The notes beneath the pieces were generated by a model that saw only the letters and a list, made by a program, of their open reading frames with translations, did not search any database and had not been told where the DNA came from. A stretch of DNA of 64,000 nt from Minisyncoccia bacterium (lineage in GTDB: Bacteria; Patescibacteriota; Minisyncoccia; UBA6257; 2-01-FULL-56-20): the NCBI GenBank assembly GCA_049997875.1, contig JBEKRC010000001.1, forward strand, positions 14,775-78,774. Reading direction: 5' to 3'. Each line of letters begins with the position of its first letter. Position 1 is the stretch's first letter. The position numbers were made by a program, and so were the translations under genes. Below are positions 8,299 to 42,857 of the stretch, in pieces.

Positions 8299-8724
8299 TC
8301 ACTCTACCACCTCAATTCCCATGTTCCGCGCGGTGCCGCGGATAATTTTTTCCGCCGCGTCCAAGTTGTCGGTGTTCAAGTCCGGCAGCTTCTTTTCTGC
8401 AATCTTCCGCACGTCTGCTTTTGTCACCTTTCCCACTTTCGTCGTAAGCGGATTCCCGGAACCCTTTTCAATGCCGGCAGCTTTTTTCAAGAGCGCTGCG
8501 GCCGGCGGGGTTTTTAAAATAAACTTGAAGCTGCGGTCTTCATAAATGGTAATAAGCGCCGGCACGACATCTCCCTTCATGTCCTTGGTCGCGTCGTTGA
8601 ACTGCTTGCAGAATTCTTGCAGATTGATGCCCTGCGGGCCCAACACCGTGCCCACCGGAGGCGCCGGATTCGCCGCTCCCGCCGGAAGCTGCAGCTTCAA
8701 AGTTGTTTTGATCTTCTTGGCCAT
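8299..8724 (-). CDS. rplK: 50S ribosomal protein L11
   Basis: [16 protein letters not shown]...[13 protein letters not shown]. The start is placed at the internal ATG at 8722-8724. Confidence 0.9.
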
Positions 8725-8769
8725 GTGAGAAATAGAATACAAAACTATCCCATAAAAATCAAATGTGGT

Positions 8770-9548
<779 letters not shown>

Positions 9549-9598
9549 CTACCACACGTGCCATTAAAAACATCTTAAAGAAAACTTGACAGCGGCCT

Positions 9599-9662
9599 GG
9601 GTGCGCTACTCGTGTTTGGGCGACTTCGTCTTCGCAGGAACCCAAACACGAGTAGCGCACCC
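9599..9662 (-). repeat. perfect 22-bp-stem hairpin with a 20-nt loop (element H1) between rpsF and ssb
   Basis: 9599-9620 is the exact reverse complement of 9641-9662. The loop cgacttcgtcttcgcaggaa matches the loop of the hairpin at 42633-42700 in 19 of 20 positions, in the same orientation relative to transcription. Confidence 0.6.
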
Positions 9663-9666
9663 TCGG

Positions 9667-10110
9667 TCACCCCAAGATTTCTTCTATCTTCTTCTCCAGC
9701 GCTTCGTTAGAAAGCGGGCGGGGCGCCGCCGAAGGCCGAGGTTCAGAAAGTGCTCTCCCGCGTTTTGGCGCGCGGAACGGGAACGAAGGCATGGCGGTGG
9801 GTTCCCGCTGTACGGCGACGGGAGATGCCACGGTAATCATTGAACGAATCACGTCTGGCTGCGTGCGGAGGTCATGTTCAAGGTTTTTTGCGTCTTCCCC
9901 CAACGCCGCAAATACACAGGAAACAAAGACTGCCTCCATGTTTCCTTTAATCTTGTATGCAAGCGCTATTTTTTTTGCGCGCGGTTCCGCGACTACCTCG
10001 CCGTTATGCTGACGGACAAGCTCCATCATGCGCGCAGCGTCGTCCTCGCTTTTGAGGAGAAGCGCAAGCTCATAGGTCTTTGTATCCGTTTCCATTTCTG
10101 CGTCGTCCAT
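9667..10110 (-). CDS. rpsF: 30S ribosomal protein S6
   Basis: YELALLL...LAYKI...VIRSMI S6 pattern. It lies upstream of ssb, as in the canonical rpsF-ssb order. The start could also be the Met at 10095. Confidence 0.75.
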   Translation of the reverse strand: MDDAEMETDTKTYELALLLKSEDDAARMMELVRQHNGEVVAEPRAKKIALAYKIKGNMEAVFVSCVFAALGEDAKNLEHDLRTQPDVIRSMITVASPVAVQREPTAMPSFPFRAPKRGRALSEPRPSAAPRPLSNEALEKKIEEILG

Positions 10111-10149: not shown

Positions 10150-16881
<6,732 letters not shown>

Positions 16882-16928
16882 TACACACAAAAACGGTGCC
16901 ACTCTTTATTCCAAGAGGTCCCGTTGGC

Positions 16929-20752: not shown

Positions 20753-21057
20753 AAAAGGTCGTTTTGCATGATGAGCGTGCATTTTGCAGACAGTACTCAG
20801 AAGGGCCGTCTGCAAAACGCACACTCACCATGTTCAACTCCATTTGTAGAAAATGGAACGAGCGCTTGCAAAATAGCTTTTGGACGAGAGCCCTTCCGAG
20901 TACTCTCGGACAAAAGCTATTTTGCAAGCACGAAGTCAGCATTGGGATGGTTGGCGGGATTATTAGTACTCCTCGGCTGAAACCCTCGCGGGCCTTACAC
21001 CTGGAGCCTATCAACGTGGTAGTCTTCCACGAAATCACACACACCTAATCTTGGGGT

Positions 21058-21231: not shown

Positions 21232-21892
21232 GCAATATATTACTTCACGTCATTACTGACGGTTTGGACTATACCACTATCTCGATCCGCATCGAGATAA
21301 TCGACGTTTTATGGAATTTTTCTTCCATCCAATCTTTTAGATTGAGTCTCTACGGGGTCAATGTATATAATTTTCGCTTCTTTGAATGATTTAATTCTCT
21401 GAAACGATCTACGGTCTTCATCAGCAGGTGAAAATCGTTTCGATCTTTCACCTCAGCTTTCTTATCTAAGATTTCCAGCATAAGCATTGCCTGTTCCTTT
21501 TTCAAAATGAGATATGGCTGGACCATTACGAGGAATGCGCGGATAGCGTCTTCTCTCGCGATGGTATATTCAACCATGCCGTCATTTCTCTCTCGGATAT
21601 ATCCGAGATCAATAAGAGAACAAATCTGCTCGAACTTTTTCAGTTCTTTCCAGAAATCCTGCAATATATGCTTTTTGTGCTGACGAAAGACTTTTACACA
21701 TGACTTCCCTCGGTATTATCCTATAACCATTCAGCGCATCAAAATACTTTTTAATATATTTTTAATGGTCATTATGGTATGCACGTCCACAGGTCATGGA
21801 CGATAGGACTTCACCGATATGAGTCAATTTTTTTCAATCCGCATTACTGCGAAAAGCCGCCGTGTTCGATCATCGTAAAGGGTTCTTTCGTT
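21232..21892 (-). mobile_element. group I intron in 23S rRNA at the E. coli L2593 (I-CreI/I-CeuI) site
   Basis: The exon reads ...GGGUUCAGACCGU | intron | CGUGAGACAGGUCGG. The 5' exon ends in U and the intron ends in G. Confidence 0.7.
21350..21664 (-). pseudogene. N-terminally truncated LAGLIDADG homing endonuclease remnant inside the L2593 intron
   Basis: The 104-aa frame matches the C-terminal half of single-motif LAGLIDADG enzymes. It has no ATG and no LAGLIDADG motif, and an in-frame stop lies 17 codons upstream. Confidence 0.5.
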
Positions 21893-22547
21893 GACGGTCT
21901 GAACCCAGCTCACGTGGGCTTTTAAATGGCGAACAGCCATACGCTTGGGAGCTTCTTCACCCCCGCGCTAGCCCGAGCCGACATCGAGGTGCCGAGCGAA
22001 GTCGTCGATAGGAACTCTCGGACTTCACCAGCCTGTTATCCCCGGAGTAGCTTTTATCCGGTGTCTCCGGCCTTTCTATCAAGAATGCCGTCGGGTCACT
22101 AACTTCTGCTTTCGCACCTGCTCGTCTTGTAGGACTCGCAGTCAAGCCGGCTTTTGCGTTTGCACGTCCTGCCCGATTTCCATCCGGGCTAAGCCGACCT
22201 TAATAAACTCCTCCGTTACTCTTTTGGAGGAAAACGCCCCATTTAAACTGCCTACCAAGCACTGTCTCGGTCGGGTTTATGCTTGCGCACTCCCCAATCG
22301 GTTAGACGTTAAAGTTTTAAAGATGGCTGTTTCATTGTCGGATCCACGATGCCCGAGAGCACCGCTTCAAATCCTCACCACTACGCTACGCAGTAAAACT
22401 CTAAAATCAATACCAAGCTGCAGTAAAGCTTCCGGGGTCTTTTCGTCCCGCTGCAGGTATCCCGCGTCTTCACGGGAATCGCATTTTCACCGAGCTTGCC
22501 TCTGAGACAGTTCTCCAGTCGTTACGCCTTTCGTGCGCTTCGGAACT

Positions 22548-22746
22548 TCATTCCTGTTGTCTTCGATTTCTCGAAGTGTCGGACTATATATTCATCCCGC
22601 CCATGCGGGAGCTTGCGTGTAGTCTCTACGGAGTCCCTGATCGAATCGGGGTTCCCTCGGTATTGCCCTATTTGCCTGTGCAAACGTAGGTTTCACCGAT
22701 ACAGCAAGTGCTTCAAGATCAATCACTTGATCAAGGGGCAAGTTTC
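22548..22746 (-). mobile_element. roughly 200-nt ORF-less insertion in 23S rRNA at about L1951 (possible small or degenerate group I intron)
   Basis: The exon reads ...UUUUCGGGU | about 197 nt | AAGUUCCGAAGCGCACGAA. The insertion ends in G. Confidence 0.45.
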
Positions 22747-22769
22747 CTTACCCGAAAAGGAATTGCGCT

Positions 22770-23517
22770 CAATTGTGTTAATCTGCATGTCGCCATGCAG
22801 TTCGGACCATATCTTCCCGCGATGCGGGTTCGGCATATGGTCTCTGAGGATTCTAGAAACGGATTTTCTTTCGATTCGTTTTTGAAGCAATGGTAAGAAT
22901 TTTATTCCATCCATCTTCTTTGAGATGGAGTTTTTTACTCATCATTTCCACTACCTTTTTGAACAAAACAAAATCGTTTTGCTTATAGGTCTTTAATGGA
23001 AATTGATCAAAAAATGGAATAATTATTTCTTTCAATTCCGAAATTGATCTCACGCAGTATCGATAAAGATGTTCGTTGTGATTATCGCATCGTTTATTAA
23101 GGACGATACTGCCACACCCGAAGAACTCTTTTATCGCTACGAGGGCGTTTAAACTTTTTGCGCCTTGCGTGATAACAAATTCCGGGAATAGTTGCTTTCC
23201 GAATCGAGTGGTTGAATTTTTGATCACCGAAATAACGAAGCTACCTTCGCCGTCGGTAAATCCAGATATCCAACTTGCCGTTTTTAGTCTTTCCTGCTGA
23301 TTGTCTGCACCGATCATATTTTCACTATACTCATGAAACATTAAATTTCTCTAAAGTTTTCATGAAATACAGTAATGTCGGATGCTCAGATGTTCCAGCA
23401 TATAGCCGATTAAAGGATATTCTGCAGGGCAGAATAGGCTGCGCTTTTATTTTGTTGTACCAAAGCCATAATCGTTCCAATCCTCGCCAGCACCTTTAAT
23501 AAATAAAGACGCGGGCG
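22770..23517 (-). mobile_element. group I intron in 23S rRNA at about L1931
   Basis: The exon reads ...AACUAUAAUCGUUCUAAGGU | intron | AGCGCAAUUCCUUUUCGGGUAAG. The intron ends in G and contains an intact homing endonuclease ORF. Confidence 0.7.
22853..23341 (-). CDS. LAGLIDADG homing endonuclease (intron-encoded)
   Basis: The 162-aa product has an N-terminal WISGFTDGEGSF (LAGLIDADG-type) motif, is AT-rich, and is on the same strand as the rRNA. Confidence 0.85.
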   Translation of the reverse strand: MFHEYSENMIGADNQQERLKTASWISGFTDGEGSFVISVIKNSTTRFGKQLFPEFVITQGAKSLNALVAIKEFFGCGSIVLNKRCDNHNEHLYRYCVRSISELKEIIIPFFDQFPLKTYKQNDFVLFKKVVEMMSKKLHLKEDGWNKILTIASKTNRKKIRF

Positions 23518-25132
23518 ACCTTAGAACGATTATAGTTATCGCTGACATTGACGAGGGCTTGAGTCAGTGAGCAATACATATTACTACATATCACCCCCAA
23601 CCTTGACCTTCTCGCATCGGTCAGGCGTCACCCCCTATACATCCTCTTGCGAGTTAGCAGGGAGCTGTGTTTTTGGTAAACAGTCGCCAGAGAAACTTTC
23701 GCTGCGGCTCCATCGAGACTGAAAGAAGGAAGGGAGGGGATCCTCCCTGAAGAATAATTTGGCCGGGCGGTGCACGACGCAGTAAAAACAAGGAGAGCCT
23801 AATCTCTTCATTCCTACTTGCAGTGAAACCGCGCACCACCCGATATGCCGTTTCCTTCTTTCAGCCCCGATAGAGCAGGCCATATTGCTAACGTACGGCC
23901 GCTTTTTTGCCGAGTTCCTTAGAGGCAAATCACTCGTTCCCCTTGGGCTTCTCGCCCTATCCACCTGTGTCGGTTTACGGTACGGATCCTTTGCAACGTA
24001 ACCGCCGCGCTTTTCTCGGAAGGCTCTTCGTGCGTGTTGATGAGGTAAATTCCTCACCTTCCGCCGATCCTTGTTGAACTTCGGACCAGCGATACCAAAC
24101 CAATAAGGCATACGCACCTATTTCCTTCGCACACGACGGATAATCACAAAGGAGGGCTGGAATATTAACCAGCATTCCATCAGCTGCGGCTTTCGCCATC
24201 GCCTTAGGATCGCCTAACCCGTGGTTGATTGCCAGTGCCACGGAAACCTTGGATTTTCGGGGTTCCAATTTCTCATTGGGATTGTGGTTACTCATACCAA
24301 CATTTTCTCTTCGTATCGCTCCACTCGCCCTCACGGGTCGGGCTTCACTGCAATACGAATGCTCTCCTACCACTCACCGATCCCGAAGGATCGGCGAATC
24401 CGTATCTTCGGTACCATGCTTAGCCCCGGTACATTTTCGGCGCCACCACCCGTCGAATAGTGAGTTGTTACACACTCTTTAAAGGATGGCTACCTCTAAG
24501 CCAACCTCCTATCTGTCTATGGGTGATGACTACCTTTAACACTTAGCATGGATTTGGGGACCTTAGATAACGGTCTGGGCTCTTCCCCTCGCGACCACGG
24601 AGCTTAGCCCCCGCAGTCTGACTAGTGCGGGATCCGCCTGCGGTATTCGGAGTTTGATTGATCGATCGGCCTTTCGGCCTTTACCGATCATCCAGTGCTC
24701 TACCCCCGCAGGATTTTCCGCACCGCTAGTCCTAAAACTATTTCGGAGAGAACCAGCTATTACCGAATTCGATTAGCTTTTCACTCCTTACCTCAGCTCA
24801 TCCGAGAGTTTTGAACAACTCACCAGTTCGGGCCTCCCCTTCGATTTCTCGAAGGTTCACCCTGGCCAAGGCAAGCTCATCCGGCTTCGGGTCTACCTTG
24901 TGCTGCGATCCCACTCAATAAATTGAGTGGGATGTACGCCCTATTAAGACTCGCTTTCGCTATGCCTGCACGCTATGCGCGTTTAGACAAGCAACACAAG
25001 ATAAGTCGTTGGCTCATTCTTCAATAGGCACATTGTCGCACCGCGCGGACACATTGCTGCGTCCACGCTTAGTGCTTCAATTCCTTGTAGACAAATGGTT
25101 TCAGGTTCTATTTCAACGGCCTCACCGGCCTG

Positions 25133-25169
<37 letters not shown>

Positions 25170-25859
25170 ATCTAGAAAAGTATTTAGCCTTACCTGATAG
25201 TACAGGCAAATTCCTTCGGGACTTATTTACCCCGAAGTACTCAAGTTGAAAAACTAAGGAGATCGTAAGTTTTCGCCTACGGGACTATCACCCTCTTTGG
25301 CCCCGCCTTTCCAGGCGGCTTCGGCTAACCAACGATTTTTTTACTCCTCCTTATTTCACCAATCGCCGAATCCCCGGGACGTGCCCGGAAACTCGGCGAC
25401 CAGTAAAACAGCGTCTCTCTCTTATAACCCCAAGGTCCGATCTTGCGATCAGAACCTTAGTTTAGGCTCTTCCCTGTTCTCTCGCCGATACTAAGGGAAT
25501 AAACTGATTTGTTCTATGTTCCTTTGGCTACTGAAATGTTTTACTTCGCCAAGTACGCGAATCGGCTTGCGCCGAAACAATTACGGTTTACGTAATTAGG
25601 TTTCCCCATTCGGACATCCCCGGATCACAGGTTGCTACGCACCTCCCCGAGGCGTATCGTCGCTACGCCACGTCCTTCATCGCCTTTTCTAGTCAAGGCA
25701 TCCACCATTCGCCCTTATTGAGATCCGTCTTGCGACGGAAATGCCAACCATCCCAATGCTGACTTTTACTTATTGAGACTGAGAGAAGGAGCGGAAAAGT
25801 TTGGTGATGGTTACCATTCCTCCGCTACTTTCAATATGTTGTTCTCCTGAGCCTGAGTT

Positions 25860-26454: not shown

Positions 26455-26612
26455 AAAGAATGTAAGCAGGGGTTTACAGCGGACCGCGCAGCCCCGATTG
26501 GCTAGGTCCGAAATGCCATTGCGTGCATTTCGGCAATCGGGGCGAGCGACAAGAAAAAATTCTCGCAGGAAGAATTTTATTCTGGCGCTGTAAACCCCTG
26601 CTTACATTCTTT
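26455..26612. repeat. MITE-like palindromic element with perfect 27-bp terminal inverted repeats abutting the tRNA-Pro 3' end
   Basis: 26455-26481 (aaagaatgtaagcaggggtttacagcg) is the exact reverse complement of 26586-26612. The 104-nt interior has nested hairpins (gccccgattg/caatcggggc, ccgaaatgc/gcatttcgg) and contains tcgcaggaa, which is shared with hairpin H1. Confidence 0.6.
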
Positions 26613-30462: not shown

Positions 30463-30770
30463 CAAGCACTACTATAATGCGAAGGTTTTCTTTTCTCAAG
30501 GGCATCTCGGAGCCACGGCGGCTTGAGGCGACCTTCAGGTCGCCTGCCGTGGCGAGAGCGAGGCGTCGCTCGCCCGCCGGAGCGAGCGACGCCGTCCCTT
30601 TCGGGAGGAAGACCGTAGCTTGTTGCGGGGGCCGGAATCGGACCGGCTTCGGGAGCTTATGGGGCTCCCCGGAAAACCATTCCCAACCCTCCCGCGCGAT
30701 TGACACAAAACGCCCGTCAACCAATTCTAAATAACTTTTTAATACATTGTCAAAAAAGGCGAAGGGTGTG

Positions 30771-41266: not shown

Positions 41267-41968
41267 ATGAGTTTTGACTTTCTGGTTTCTCTTTTTTTTC
41301 CACGCCGCTGCCTTGCCTGCGGGAAAACCCTGCGGGCGGGCGCGCTCTGTCCCGCGTGCCGCGGGAAGATAACGACCGCGCGCACGTTCTTCTGCGGCCG
41401 ATGCGGCTCGCCGCTTCCCGGTCCGAAGCTCCATGACCCCCGCCGCACCTGCCATCCTGACTTCCCCTACGTGCTCGGCGCCGCGGGAAGCTACAAGGAC
41501 GAAACCCTAAGGGCGCTCGTCCACGCCCTCAAGTTCCGCGGCGTGAGAGCGGCGGCGGAACCGCTCGCATCCATCATGGCGGAGTACGCCCTGCCATTCA
41601 AAACGGATCTGTTGCGTTACGTCGCGATGCCAATCCCGCTTTCGCGTGAGCGCTTCCGCATCCGCGGTTTCAATCAATCGGAACGCATTGCAACGCGATT
41701 CGCGGAATATTTCGGACTTCCCGTGGCAACGAAGTGCCTTGTGCGGATCAAGCACGCAAAACCACAGAGTGAAACGACGAGCGTGGCGGAGCGGAGAGAG
41801 AACATCCGCGGATGTTTTGCGGTTGCCGATGCCGCCGCCGCGTGCGGGAAAAACGTTCTCCTTGTTGACGACGTGAGCACCTCCGGCGCGACGTTTCTTG
41901 AAGCTGCGCGCGCGCTCAAGGACGCCCACGCGGCGGACATTATCGCGCTTGCGGCAGCCAAGGCATAG
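41267..41968 (+). CDS. comF: competence protein ComF (phosphoribosyltransferase domain)
   Basis: An N-terminal Cys4 zinc finger (CLACG...CPACRG...CGRCG) and a C-terminal PRTase motif (VLLVDDVSTSGATF). Confidence 0.8.
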   Translation: MSFDFLVSLFFPRRCLACGKTLRAGALCPACRGKITTARTFFCGRCGSPLPGPKLHDPRRTCHPDFPYVLGAAGSYKDETLRALVHALKFRGVRAAAEPLASIMAEYALPFKTDLLRYVAMPIPLSRERFRIRGFNQSERIATRFAEYFGLPVATKCLVRIKHAKPQSETTSVAERRENIRGCFAVADAAAACGKNVLLVDDVSTSGATFLEAARALKDAHAADIIALAAAKA

Positions 41969-42148
41969 AACCCATCTCCAAAATAGGCGCACGAGGATCA
42001 TGAACCATTTTCGAGCGAGAAACGTGAATCCCGACAAAGGAATACCTCGTGGCATTGCGAGGAGGGATTCGCGTTTCGCAGCCGAAAATGGCCATAAGAG
42101 TCGTGTGGCCTATTTTGGAGATGGGTTCTCACGTGGTAAAATAGCCAC

Positions 42149-42616
42149 ATGGCATCATTTGAAATGAAATGGGAAGCGCCGGAGTACGAGTACCGCGAGA
42201 AAGGCGTGTCGTGGTACTGGATTTCCATCATCATCGCGGCCGTCATCATCGCATTCTCCGTCTGGGAAAGGAACTTCCTCTTCGGACTTTTCGTCGTCAT
42301 CGCGGAGATGCTTTTCATCGTATGGGGCAACCGCGCGCCGCGCACGGTGCGCTTCGCGCTCACCGAAAACGGCGTAGCGATAGAAGGAGGAAAATCCCAT
42401 TCGCTCAAGGACTTTGAGAGCGTGAGTGCGACGGCAGCGAACGACGGCTGGGTTGAACTTACATTTACCTTCCGCGCAAAACTCAAAACGCCTTTAAAGA
42501 TTTTCCTCCCGGAGGCGCGGCTCACCGAATTCCGCAACAACATGAAGCTGATCCTCAGGGAAGTGCCCCACGAACCGACGCTGCTTGACTCCATTGAAAA
42601 GCTCGTCGGGTTTTAG
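42149..42616 (+). CDS. hypothetical membrane protein
   Basis: The 155-aa product has two TM helices followed by a soluble domain. Confidence 0.45.
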   Translation: MASFEMKWEAPEYEYREKGVSWYWISIIIAAVIIAFSVWERNFLFGLFVVIAEMLFIVWGNRAPRTVRFALTENGVAIEGGKSHSLKDFESVSATAANDGWVELTFTFRAKLKTPLKIFLPEARLTEFRNNMKLILREVPHEPTLLDSIEKLVGF

Positions 42617-42632: not shown

Positions 42633-42700
42633 GCATGCGCTCCCGCTGTGTGCGCCCTCCTGCGCAGACGAAGTCGGTCGCACACAGCGGGAGCGCATGC
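42633..42700 (+). repeat. perfect 22-bp-stem hairpin with a 24-nt loop (element H2), 3 nt upstream of tRNA-Arg
   Basis: 42633-42654 is the exact reverse complement of 42679-42700. The loop ccctcctgcgcagacgaagtcggt is near-identical to the reverse complement of the H1 loop. Confidence 0.6.
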
Positions 42701-42703
42701 TAC

Positions 42704-42775
42704 GCCCTCGTCGTTCAACGGACAGGACGCAAGATTGCGGATCTTGTAATAGAGGTTCGATTCCTCTCGAGGGCA
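42704..42775 (+). tRNA. tRNA-Arg (GCG)
   Basis: GCCCUCG/CGAGGGC acceptor, GUUC/GGAC D-stem, anticodon arm CAAGA-UUGCGGA-UCUUG, T-arm AGAGG-UUCGAUU-CCUCU and discriminator A. Confidence 0.8.
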
Positions 42776-42857
42776 CCTTGCACAAAACGGCAGAAAACGG
42801 TTAAATTAGGGCATAGGCGAAAAACGCCAAAGGTCTAACTAATTCTTTAACAAAAAT

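Follow-up and report, generated by a model that had tools for sequence, protein, structure and literature searches.

This analysis concerns a long, perfect hairpin, H1, that lies between the genes rpsF and ssb in contig JBEKRC010000001.1 of a Minisyncoccia bacterium. We covered about 64 kb of that genome (the window, a stretch of 64,000 nucleotides) together with pieces of about 20 kb from its relatives, which are designated below by L numbers. The host lineage belongs to the candidate phyla radiation (CPR)/Patescibacteria (Paceibacteria) of peat and soil metagenomes, as judged from the fused rpoBC gene, the enlarged 23S rRNA and the names carried by the most similar proteins, such as "Minisyncoccia bacterium" and "Candidatus Paceibacterota". 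H1 is a real, non-random hairpin, and the sequences indicate that it belongs to a previously undescribed family of palindromic elements that lie between genes and are confined to one Paceibacteria clade. Our favoured reading, which we put forward tentatively, is that H1 is a palindromic element akin to the repetitive extragenic palindromes (REP) of proteobacteria and that, once transcribed, it would form a hairpin acting as a barrier or insulator at an RNA 3' end. The following features make up the locus.

8299..8796, minus strand: rplK, which comes after ssb
9045..9539, minus strand: ssb (PF00436), downstream of H1
9546..9591, minus strand: conserved block TGTCAAGTTTTCTTTAAGA..TTTTAATG..TGgTAGAAT with an extended -10, the putative ssb promoter
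9599..9662, minus strand: hairpin H1, 22 Watson-Crick pairs (5' arm 9662-9641, apex 9640-9621, 3' arm 9620-9599)
9621..9639, minus strand: conserved type-A core of the H1 apex, TCCTGCGAAGACGAAGTCG, with a predicted tip structure
9667..10110, minus strand: rpsF (ribosomal protein S6, PF01250), followed by H1 4 nt past its stop codon
10120..10148, minus strand: promoter-like site TGGACA-17-TATACT just 5' of rpsF, recognised by consensus match only
10150..16902, minus strand: fused rpoB-rpoC open reading frame (ORF) of 2250 aa, upstream of rpsF

The inverted repeat that the initial annotation described at 9599-9662, a 22-bp perfect stem with a 20-nt loop, was confirmed: its arms, 9599-9620 and 9641-9662, are complementary at all 22 positions and enclose 20 nt. 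Two distances needed correction. The gap between the rpsF stop codon (9667-9669) and the stem, which begins at 9662, is 4 nt and not 5; and the T-run that had been placed 12 nt away lies about 15 nt downstream of the stem, which is followed by AGGCCGCTGTCAAGTTTTC, and is part of the conserved ssb promoter block. The tip is predicted to consist of a UC/UC internal loop, C-G and U-A pairs, a G.A mismatch, C-G and G-C pairs and an AAGA loop. Because the rpsF-ssb spacer is 100% identical across 10 independent assemblies (from ENA, JGI and Logan), H1 is not an assembly artefact.

The loop 19-mer, TCCTGCG[A/C]AGACGAAGTCG, occurs at exactly two sites in the window, 9621-9639 on the minus strand and 42658-42676 on the plus strand, whereas 0.04 matches are expected by chance even at three mismatches, and two matches were found in 0 of 100 shuffles. 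The second site is the apex of hairpin H2, which stands between a gene for a conserved hypothetical protein and a tRNA gene.

42149..42616, plus strand: protein "X", a conserved hypothetical membrane protein, its stop codon 16 nt upstream of H2
42633..42700, plus strand: hairpin H2, paralogue of H1, a 22-bp perfect stem with a 24-nt apex holding TCCTGCGCAGACGAAGTCG at 42658-42676
42704..42777, plus strand: tRNA-Arg(GCG), beginning 3 nt past H2, a gap that neither has space for a separate promoter nor shows a signal for one

Folding, which the initial annotation had proposed as a check, bore out both hairpin regions (-60.7 kcal/mol for H1 and -64.7 kcal/mol for H2; z = -8.4 and -8.0 versus shuffles), and the H1 stem-loop itself is predicted at about -49 kcal/mol. 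The claimed similarity of the two loops stands, with a common core that shares 18 of 19 positions rather than 19 of 20. The two stems had been called unrelated; judged by sequence they are paralogous, with 14 of 22 positions identical in register (TGCGCT being common to both; z = 3.5 versus shuffles). A search across the window for extra copies of either stem returned nothing besides the two arms of each hairpin.

A search for the exact loop, in one genome per species (596 Gb) and in the JGI metagenomes, returned about 48 matches. A long stem flanks the match only in related CPR genomes, where about six further hairpins were found, listed here with their stems and positions. The remaining matches, mostly in G+C-rich soil bacteria and with stems of 2-7 bp, are chance matches.

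L034, the same as L011: H1 orthologue in the 888-kb chromosome OY970382.1, with most of the 3' arm deleted and a stem of only 5 bp left
L041b: 18 bp, also in OY970382.1, between rplL and tRNA-Val
L026: 25 bp, A+T-rich, one G.T, between an ORF and tRNA-Ser
L057: 20 bp, between the 16S/group I intron region and tRNA-Leu
L063: about 19 bp, one C.A, after a stop codon
L064: 16 bp, one C.A, after a stop codon

The genome-wide search suggested by the initial annotation thus did turn up further stem-bearing copies, with the same loop on different stems, and its proposal of a conserved-loop hairpin family holds. The family is rare and not a dispersed repeat: the complete chromosome OY970382.1 holds two exact-loop copies, and there are about two per 0.9-Mb genome. 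The L011-L015 and L066 sequences come from a long-read assembly in which the L013 and L015 contigs show frameshifted genes, and single-base details there, possibly including the arm deletion of L011, may be assembly errors.

Alignment of the short types brings out a common apex. A UC/UC 2x2 internal loop adjoins the stem; then follow, in this order, two covarying pairs, a purine.A mismatch, CG/CG and an A-rich loop in which AGA is invariant (AAGA, CAGA, AGAGA or UAAGA). The two-pair helix reads CU/AG in type A, GC/GU in type B and AU/AU in type C, and variants B (L015, L066a and L066b), C (L011b) and D (L070) have the same tip architecture. Since this architecture is kept through compensatory changes, the tip is a conserved small structure and not a mere string. 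The G.U pair of type B exists on one strand only.

Stems in the family are 15-25 bp long and site-specific in sequence, similar only between orthologues and between H1 and H2; their inner parts show a loose "TTTG...CAAA" tendency only. MAFFT followed by RNAalifold gave no structure for the short hairpins, because the apex linkers differ in length and put the stems out of register, and pairs were counted directly. Over 12 elements there are 254 Watson-Crick pairs, 1 G.U and 2 C.A (254/257). The initial annotation had taken the paired but dissimilar stems as covariation of the kind expected of a functional RNA hairpin or a mobile foldback element. RNA-selected helices normally accumulate G.U, however, and strict Watson-Crick pairing in which G.U is no commoner than C.A is unusual for selection on an RNA helix.

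The position upstream of ssb is a persistent one. A long palindrome stands directly upstream of the ssb promoter block in eight of eight genomes, over S6 identities of 54-100%, as follows.

Window, S6 100%: type-A hairpin
L011, S6 89%: type-A hairpin
L012, S6 87%: the type called L1, a stem of about 30 bp around a 50-110-nt three-way-junction core
L013, S6 81%: L1 likewise, a stem of about 30 bp around a 50-110-nt three-way-junction core
L015, S6 68%: 21-bp perfect stem with the type-B apex TCGCACGAGAGACGAGTTCG
L070, S6 63%: 25-bp perfect stem with a 30-nt apex (type D)
L072, S6 60%: 16-bp stem around a 105-nt core (L2)
L073, S6 54%: L1-type palindrome immediately upstream of ssb, with rpsF elsewhere

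In each of the eight, the block (GTCAAG)yTTTCTTTAAGA...TTTTAATG...TGnTAGAAT follows the palindrome within 0-25 nt. The L015 stem is homologous to that of H1 (z = 3.7-5.2) and carries compensated substitutions. The palindrome is kept even in L073, where rpsF is not its neighbour, and its tie to rpsF is thus no closer than that to the ssb promoter. The initial annotation had supposed that the hairpin may set S6 versus SSB expression; what the comparisons bring out is a link with the ssb promoter and not with rpsF. The L073 rpsF is followed instead by an ordinary terminator with a 17-bp stem, a 5-nt loop and a T-run, which shows that a 3'-end signal is used after rpsF. By sequence, rpsF and ssb each seem to have a promoter of their own, that of rpsF about 10 nt before its ATG. 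In the window the block spans about 45 nt (9546-9591), and ssb is probably leaderless, because its ATG lies only 6 nt beyond the extended -10 (TGgTAGAAT).

At the site between protein X and tRNA-Arg the element comes and goes.

Window, X identity 100%: H2 present
L065, X identity 90%: 11-nt spacer only
L074, X identity 87%: 11-nt spacer only
L066, X identity 73%: 24-bp hairpin, its outer stem homologous to that of H2 (GCGTGCCTTCCC versus GCATGCGCTCCC)
L068, X identity 72%: nothing at all

The L066 hairpin carries its type-B apex inverted, and a second type-B hairpin follows immediately after the tRNA, so that two type-B hairpins stand inverted on either side of tRNA-Arg, an arrangement comparable to a pair in the 23S-5S spacer of the window that is described below. 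In relatives without a hairpin the tRNA-Arg gene directly follows the stop region of gene X. The tRNA-Arg of the window (42704-42777) has the anticodon GCG as against the usual bacterial ACG, and its CCA is not encoded. On the other side of gene X, between a ComFC-like gene and the gene X promoter, positions 41967-42129 form a 22-bp perfect stem around a structured 119-nt core. This 163-nt element is cleanly missing from L074, where the stop codon runs directly into CGTGGTAAAAT. We considered whether the apex might be a small insert in a pre-existing terminator hairpin and rejected the idea: L074 lacks the whole of the 41967-42129 element, stem included, and the bare 11-nt spacer at its H2 site is further evidence to the same effect.

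Apart from L073c and the L1 copy at 30487-30606, which both lie in divergent promoter regions, each element begins between -2 and +19 nt from an upstream stop codon or tRNA 3' end. A tRNA is found within about 110 nt of five of the seven loop-pattern copies, against about 10% expected (p ~ 2e-4). The loop had been said to read along local transcription. The short-type apex is indeed sense to it in 8 of 11 copies, but in the other three (L041b, L026 and L066a) it is antisense to the flanking genes, yet intact. Four copies (H2, L041b, L026 and L066a) stand 3-24 nt before tRNAs with no promoter signal between, and must therefore be read through, ending beside the RNase P cut.

The initial annotation had offered two options, a functional hairpin or a mobile foldback element, and these are the two readings that remain live. 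The one that we tentatively favour starts from position: H1 fills the gap from the rpsF stop codon to the conserved, probably leaderless ssb promoter. We infer that it is transcribed from the rpsF promoter, at the end of a short rpsF unit, and that its RNA would fold into a very stable stem-loop (about -49 kcal/mol) serving as a 3'-end barrier. Such a barrier could stop or slow read-through into the ssb promoter and block 3'-exonucleases, and the stem may also be a cleavage site in double-stranded RNA, while ssb would rely on a separate promoter. Where a copy closely precedes a tRNA gene, RNase P cleavage would leave it as a protective 3' terminus on the mRNA upstream. As DNA, the elements behave much as REP or Correia elements do: they come and go at orthologous sites, their apexes flip, and apex types swap within stems that persist. 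If a protein maintains or uses the hairpins, it most likely recognises them by the conserved apex; such a partner is, like transcription and a barrier or terminator effect, something that we infer, while the sequences themselves show the structure, the family with its distribution and positions, the insertions and deletions, the flips and the apex covariation.

A close comparison is with the REP, bacterial interspersed mosaic (BIME) and REPIN elements of proteobacteria, which are likewise intergenic palindromes at gene 3' ends, in either orientation, gained and lost, and forming genome-specific families. Those elements are transcribed and can stabilise the upstream mRNA or attenuate transcription. 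In REP, however, the stem is conserved and the loop varies, whereas the H1 family shows the reverse; and REPs, which are accompanied by a RAYT transposase, number in the tens to hundreds, as against about 2-6 copies of the H1 family per 0.9-Mb genome. Membership of the REP/REPIN class proper was rejected: the stems are site-specific with no shared palindromic stem, and there are 2 copies in 64 kb rather than tens to hundreds. No RAYT (TnpA-REP) gene is present among the called genes of the window and of the relative pieces. The Correia elements of Neisseria (CREE) and similar hairpins of the miniature inverted-repeat transposable element (MITE) kind are long hairpins co-transcribed with their neighbours, as we suppose H1 to be, and Correia hairpins are RNase III substrates that alter transcript stability. 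Correia elements, however, number in the hundreds and have conserved 26-bp terminal inverted repeats and TA target duplications, features not seen in the H1 family. A MITE was rejected because the outer stems differ between copies and so provide no conserved terminal inverted repeats; comparison with empty sites revealed no direct repeats, as target-site duplications would be, flanking H1, H2, L041b, L057, L066a/b or the 41967-42129 element. There is also a likeness to the intervening sequences (IVS) of 23S rRNA, sporadic extended stem-loops that are present or absent among close relatives, in that relatives of H1 occur in the 23S-5S spacer and beside tRNAs. IVS in stable-RNA transcripts are removed by RNase III. 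They replace the tips of rRNA helices inside mature rRNA, however, while H1 lies between protein-coding genes.

CPR genomes are tiny, with very little non-coding DNA, and we know of almost nothing on how their transcripts end or are processed. A literature search found no description of such hairpin or palindromic elements in CPR bacteria. What is notable is the combination of long wobble-free palindromes, a structured conserved tip, a position at the ssb promoter, an association with tRNAs, and gain, loss and flipping. If the elements act as RNA, they would constitute a lineage-specific 3'-end or processing signal and point to a tip-reading protein. If they act as DNA, they would be a rare kind of palindrome whose loop is conserved and mobile and whose stem is not, and would need an undescribed mechanism. 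The main interest lies in the unexplained pairing of perfect, site-specific stems with shared tips.

Several observations weigh against a 3'-end barrier. The element is dispensable at some sites: H2 is absent in L065, L074 and L068, and the H1 orthologue of L011 has its 3' arm deleted. Copies that are antisense with an intact apex would not be tolerated by an RNA function that depends on apex sequence, and copies that precede tRNAs must be transcribed through and so are not efficient terminators. There is no U-tract beside the H1 stem, though canonical terminators occur elsewhere in the window, and the palindrome upstream of ssb in L073 lies in a divergent intergenic region and not at the 3' end of any gene. 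Furthermore, the core helices of L1 contain 8 G.U among 168 pairs, as against the single G.U of the stems counted above (Fisher p = 0.003). The near-absence of G.U implies that both DNA strands must fold, or that the arms are copied mutually, or that a perfect-duplex substrate is needed; the wobble-free stems point to a DNA-level constraint or to arm-to-arm copying.

The main rival reading, possible if on balance unlikely, is that H1 is purely a DNA-level palindrome, selfish or neutral, whose arms are matched by mutual copying through template switching or hairpin-directed repair. Tips would then be exchanged or flipped by recombination or repair, the elements would be tolerated in scarce non-coding gaps, and any effect in RNA would be incidental. 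The strict pairing of the stems (254 of 257 Watson-Crick, G.U no commoner than C.A) agrees with this, as do the deleted 3' arm in L011 and the presence or absence of whole elements among relatives whose protein X is 87-90% identical (L074 lacks both H2 and the 41967-42129 element, and L065 lacks H2). Apexes occur in both orientations, including adjacent inverted pairs (L066a/L066b, and 20864-20929 with 20754-20845). The L072a and L072b cores are 92% identical inside unrelated stems in one genome, the compensated differences between orthologous stems include several transversions, and L013a is hybrid-like, with a 5' arm resembling H1 and a 3' arm resembling L012. Of all the readings, this one accounts best for the wobble-free stems, the flips, the gain and loss of whole elements, the L072 cores and the hybrid arms. 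A purely DNA-level palindrome is, however, hard to square with the persistence of the ssb-upstream palindrome over deep divergence (S6 54-100%), with an apex conserved at 19 of 19 positions across genomes, or with a tip structure kept by compensatory changes, including the one-strand G.U. The very low copy number and the unshared stems imply that there was no recent copy-and-paste burst, target-site duplications were not seen at the sites compared, and no known mechanism would give each new copy a new stem.

A dedicated DNA-level system, in which a structure-specific nuclease or recombinase reads the tip of the folded hairpin or cruciform, we consider rather unlikely. Nick-primed fold-back synthesis or tip-directed repair would in that case keep the arms complementary and flip or move the tips, much as in rolling-hairpin transfer but on a chromosome, with conservation confined to the loop and the stem able to take any sequence. 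A related idea is that CPR bacteria would possess a loop-anchored "ruler" nuclease for double-stranded RNA.

Equally improbable, in our estimate, is that the elements are processing sites for an enzyme of the RNase III/Mini-III type, with the apex as recognition element and the long helix as measured substrate, whose cleavage would separate mRNAs from tRNAs and rRNAs. RNase III needs about two helical turns, which the 18-25-bp stems satisfy, and H1, with its 22 uninterrupted Watson-Crick pairs, is predicted to offer the helix of at least about 20 bp that such an enzyme takes as double-stranded RNA. Yeast Rnt1p, which reads AGNN tetraloops, provides an analogy, and the apex loop has an invariant AGA. 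The enrichment of copies beside tRNAs, the relatives in the 23S-5S spacer with the same UC/UC internal loop, and apex types that are genome-specific, as if co-evolving with an enzyme, are all consistent with processing. On the other hand, flipped copies present a different loop, the elements are dispensable at the X-tRNA-Arg site, and RNase III does not require G.U-free helices. The RNase III signature motif was not found in the window and the relative pieces, a negative of no weight given how little of each genome they represent.

That the element specifically regulates ssb, or the balance of S6 and SSB, is quite unlikely, whether as a cruciform or hairpin that senses SSB or supercoiling by its extrusion or its single-stranded loop, or as an RNA site bound by S6 or SSB. 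In each of the eight genomes, L073 included, the palindrome does border the ssb promoter block on its upstream side. Against this, the same apex is found at X/tRNA-Arg, rplL/tRNA-Val, tRNA-Ser and 16S/tRNA-Leu; the ssb site carries completely different apexes from genome to genome (A, B, D, L1, L2), with no specific sequence kept; and the leaderless-looking ssb leaves no 5' untranslated region for translational control.

Less likely still is a single-stranded-DNA signal, be it a hairpin that serves priming or nicking (sso/ssi or HUH-nuclease type) or one subject to parvovirus-like flip/flop transfer. A conserved loop on a variable long stem is typical of such signals, and the ssoA sequences of rolling-circle plasmids and the terminal hairpins of parvoviruses share with the H1 family T-shaped variants (the three-way-junction form of the long relatives) and flip/flop orientations; strictly Watson-Crick stems would fit as well. 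Those hairpins, however, sit on plasmid or viral replicons with a dedicated Rep, whereas the H1 family is chromosomal and found where genes end, and none of the loci examined showed a nuclease or Rep gene associated with it. Viral contigs, searched with the type-A loop, the type-B loop, the long-core motif and both stems, gave nothing bar one stemless chance match to the loop. The two exact copies in the 888-kb OY970382.1 are both on the plus strand, at 47 kb and 454 kb, and lack a consistent leading/lagging polarity if the origin, which is unmapped, lies near position 0; a reading in terms of replication polarity was rejected on this ground, the GC skew of the window being uninformative.

That H1 is an ordinary Rho-independent terminator of rpsF can hardly be right, as the initial annotation had recognised: it is a stable hairpin just after the rpsF stop codon, and L073 has a canonical terminator at the orthologous position, but its 22-bp stem is about twice as long as usual and its structured loop has 20 nt (5-14 bp and 3-8 nt being canonical), the T-run is not within 14 nt where a U-tract should follow at 0-2 nt, the terminator scan does not call it, the canonical terminators of the window look quite different, and family members lie directly before tRNAs, some being read through for the tRNA.

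A number of other candidates were rejected. An integron attC site was discarded in view of a perfect stem without bulges, R''/R' ends (RYYYAAC/GTTRRRY) that are not conserved, and a housekeeping context; an rpsF leader of the S6:S18 kind, in view of a position downstream of rpsF and not in its 5' untranslated region; and a CRISPR or tandem array, the copies being single and 33 kb apart. Orthologues end in either TGA or TAG, on which ground a selenocysteine insertion sequence (SECIS) or read-through signal was rejected; the idea that the stems are spacer-like copies of phage DNA was dropped because viral contigs yielded no matches to them. Local alignment of the loop to the 23S and 5S rRNA of the window produced only chance matches of the 12/14 type, giving no sign of rRNA mimicry, and pairing of the loop or its complement with 23S, 5S, a related 16S and the tRNAs of the window stayed within the range of shuffled loops; the best pairing, with one tRNA (z ~ -2.5), is unconvincing after multiple tests. 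When H1, H2 and seven related loci were compared with Rfam 15 at gathering and at permissive E-values, only miRNA-precursor models appeared (13-31 bits versus thresholds of 53-100), so that the Rfam search the initial annotation had proposed placed neither H1 nor H2 in a family at the gathering threshold.

As regards the neighbourhood of H1, rpsR is missing from the rpsF-ssb-rplK cluster, as had been claimed, and a crude motif search, which is weak evidence, did not find S18 in the window. The rpoB-rpoC fusion is present in most relatives as well (L001, L002, L011, L012, L069, L070, L072 and L073). A small membrane-protein-like ORF lies antisense between ssb and rplK at 8617-9048 on the plus strand and is called as a gene in L002 and L005. 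In relatives the ssb-rplK spacer holds palindromic elements, a PQ-loop gene or an insertion sequence (with an rve transposase, in L015) instead.

The window and its relatives also contain longer structured elements. Positions 30487-30606 (minus strand) carry the L1 motif, a predicted three-way junction that measures about 100 nt and always has TCCGAG as its 3' junction, and further L1 copies are found in L012 (10446-10556 and 11130-11275), L013 (10441-10606 and 11159-11291), L041 (1626-1769) and L073 (11254-11375). All seven copies are in sense orientation, most of them inside a long perfect outer stem. Among five sequences, 13 of the 41 predicted L1 pairs are compensated, a covariation that resembles that of RNA, and we suggest L1 as a candidate new structured RNA or DNA motif of Paceibacteria. 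Together with the uniform orientation, this covariation counts in favour of our preferred reading of H1. The long relatives, L1 among them, had no match in Rfam. The L2 family is represented in L072 (10436-10600 and 11098-11254) by two cores 92% identical over 111 nt with unrelated outer stems. At 26455-26612 (minus strand), a 27-bp perfect stem with a 104-nt branched core abuts the 3' end of tRNA-Pro and has a T-run at its end; the loop of one inner hairpin, TTCCTGCGA, equals the first 9 nt of the H1 apex. In the 23S-5S spacer, two long hairpins on the minus strand (20864-20929 and 20754-20845) bear the same apex, AGTACTC[G/A]GAAGGGC, in opposite orientations, with mutually complementary loops, and that at 20864-20929 has an internal loop of the H1 UC/UC type. 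The 23S rRNA gene itself (21811-25728, minus strand) is 3918 nt long as against a 2925-nt model, which implies insertions or introns, and in L057 (2002-5284) the related 16S spans 2516 nt, with a group I intron match at its 3' end.

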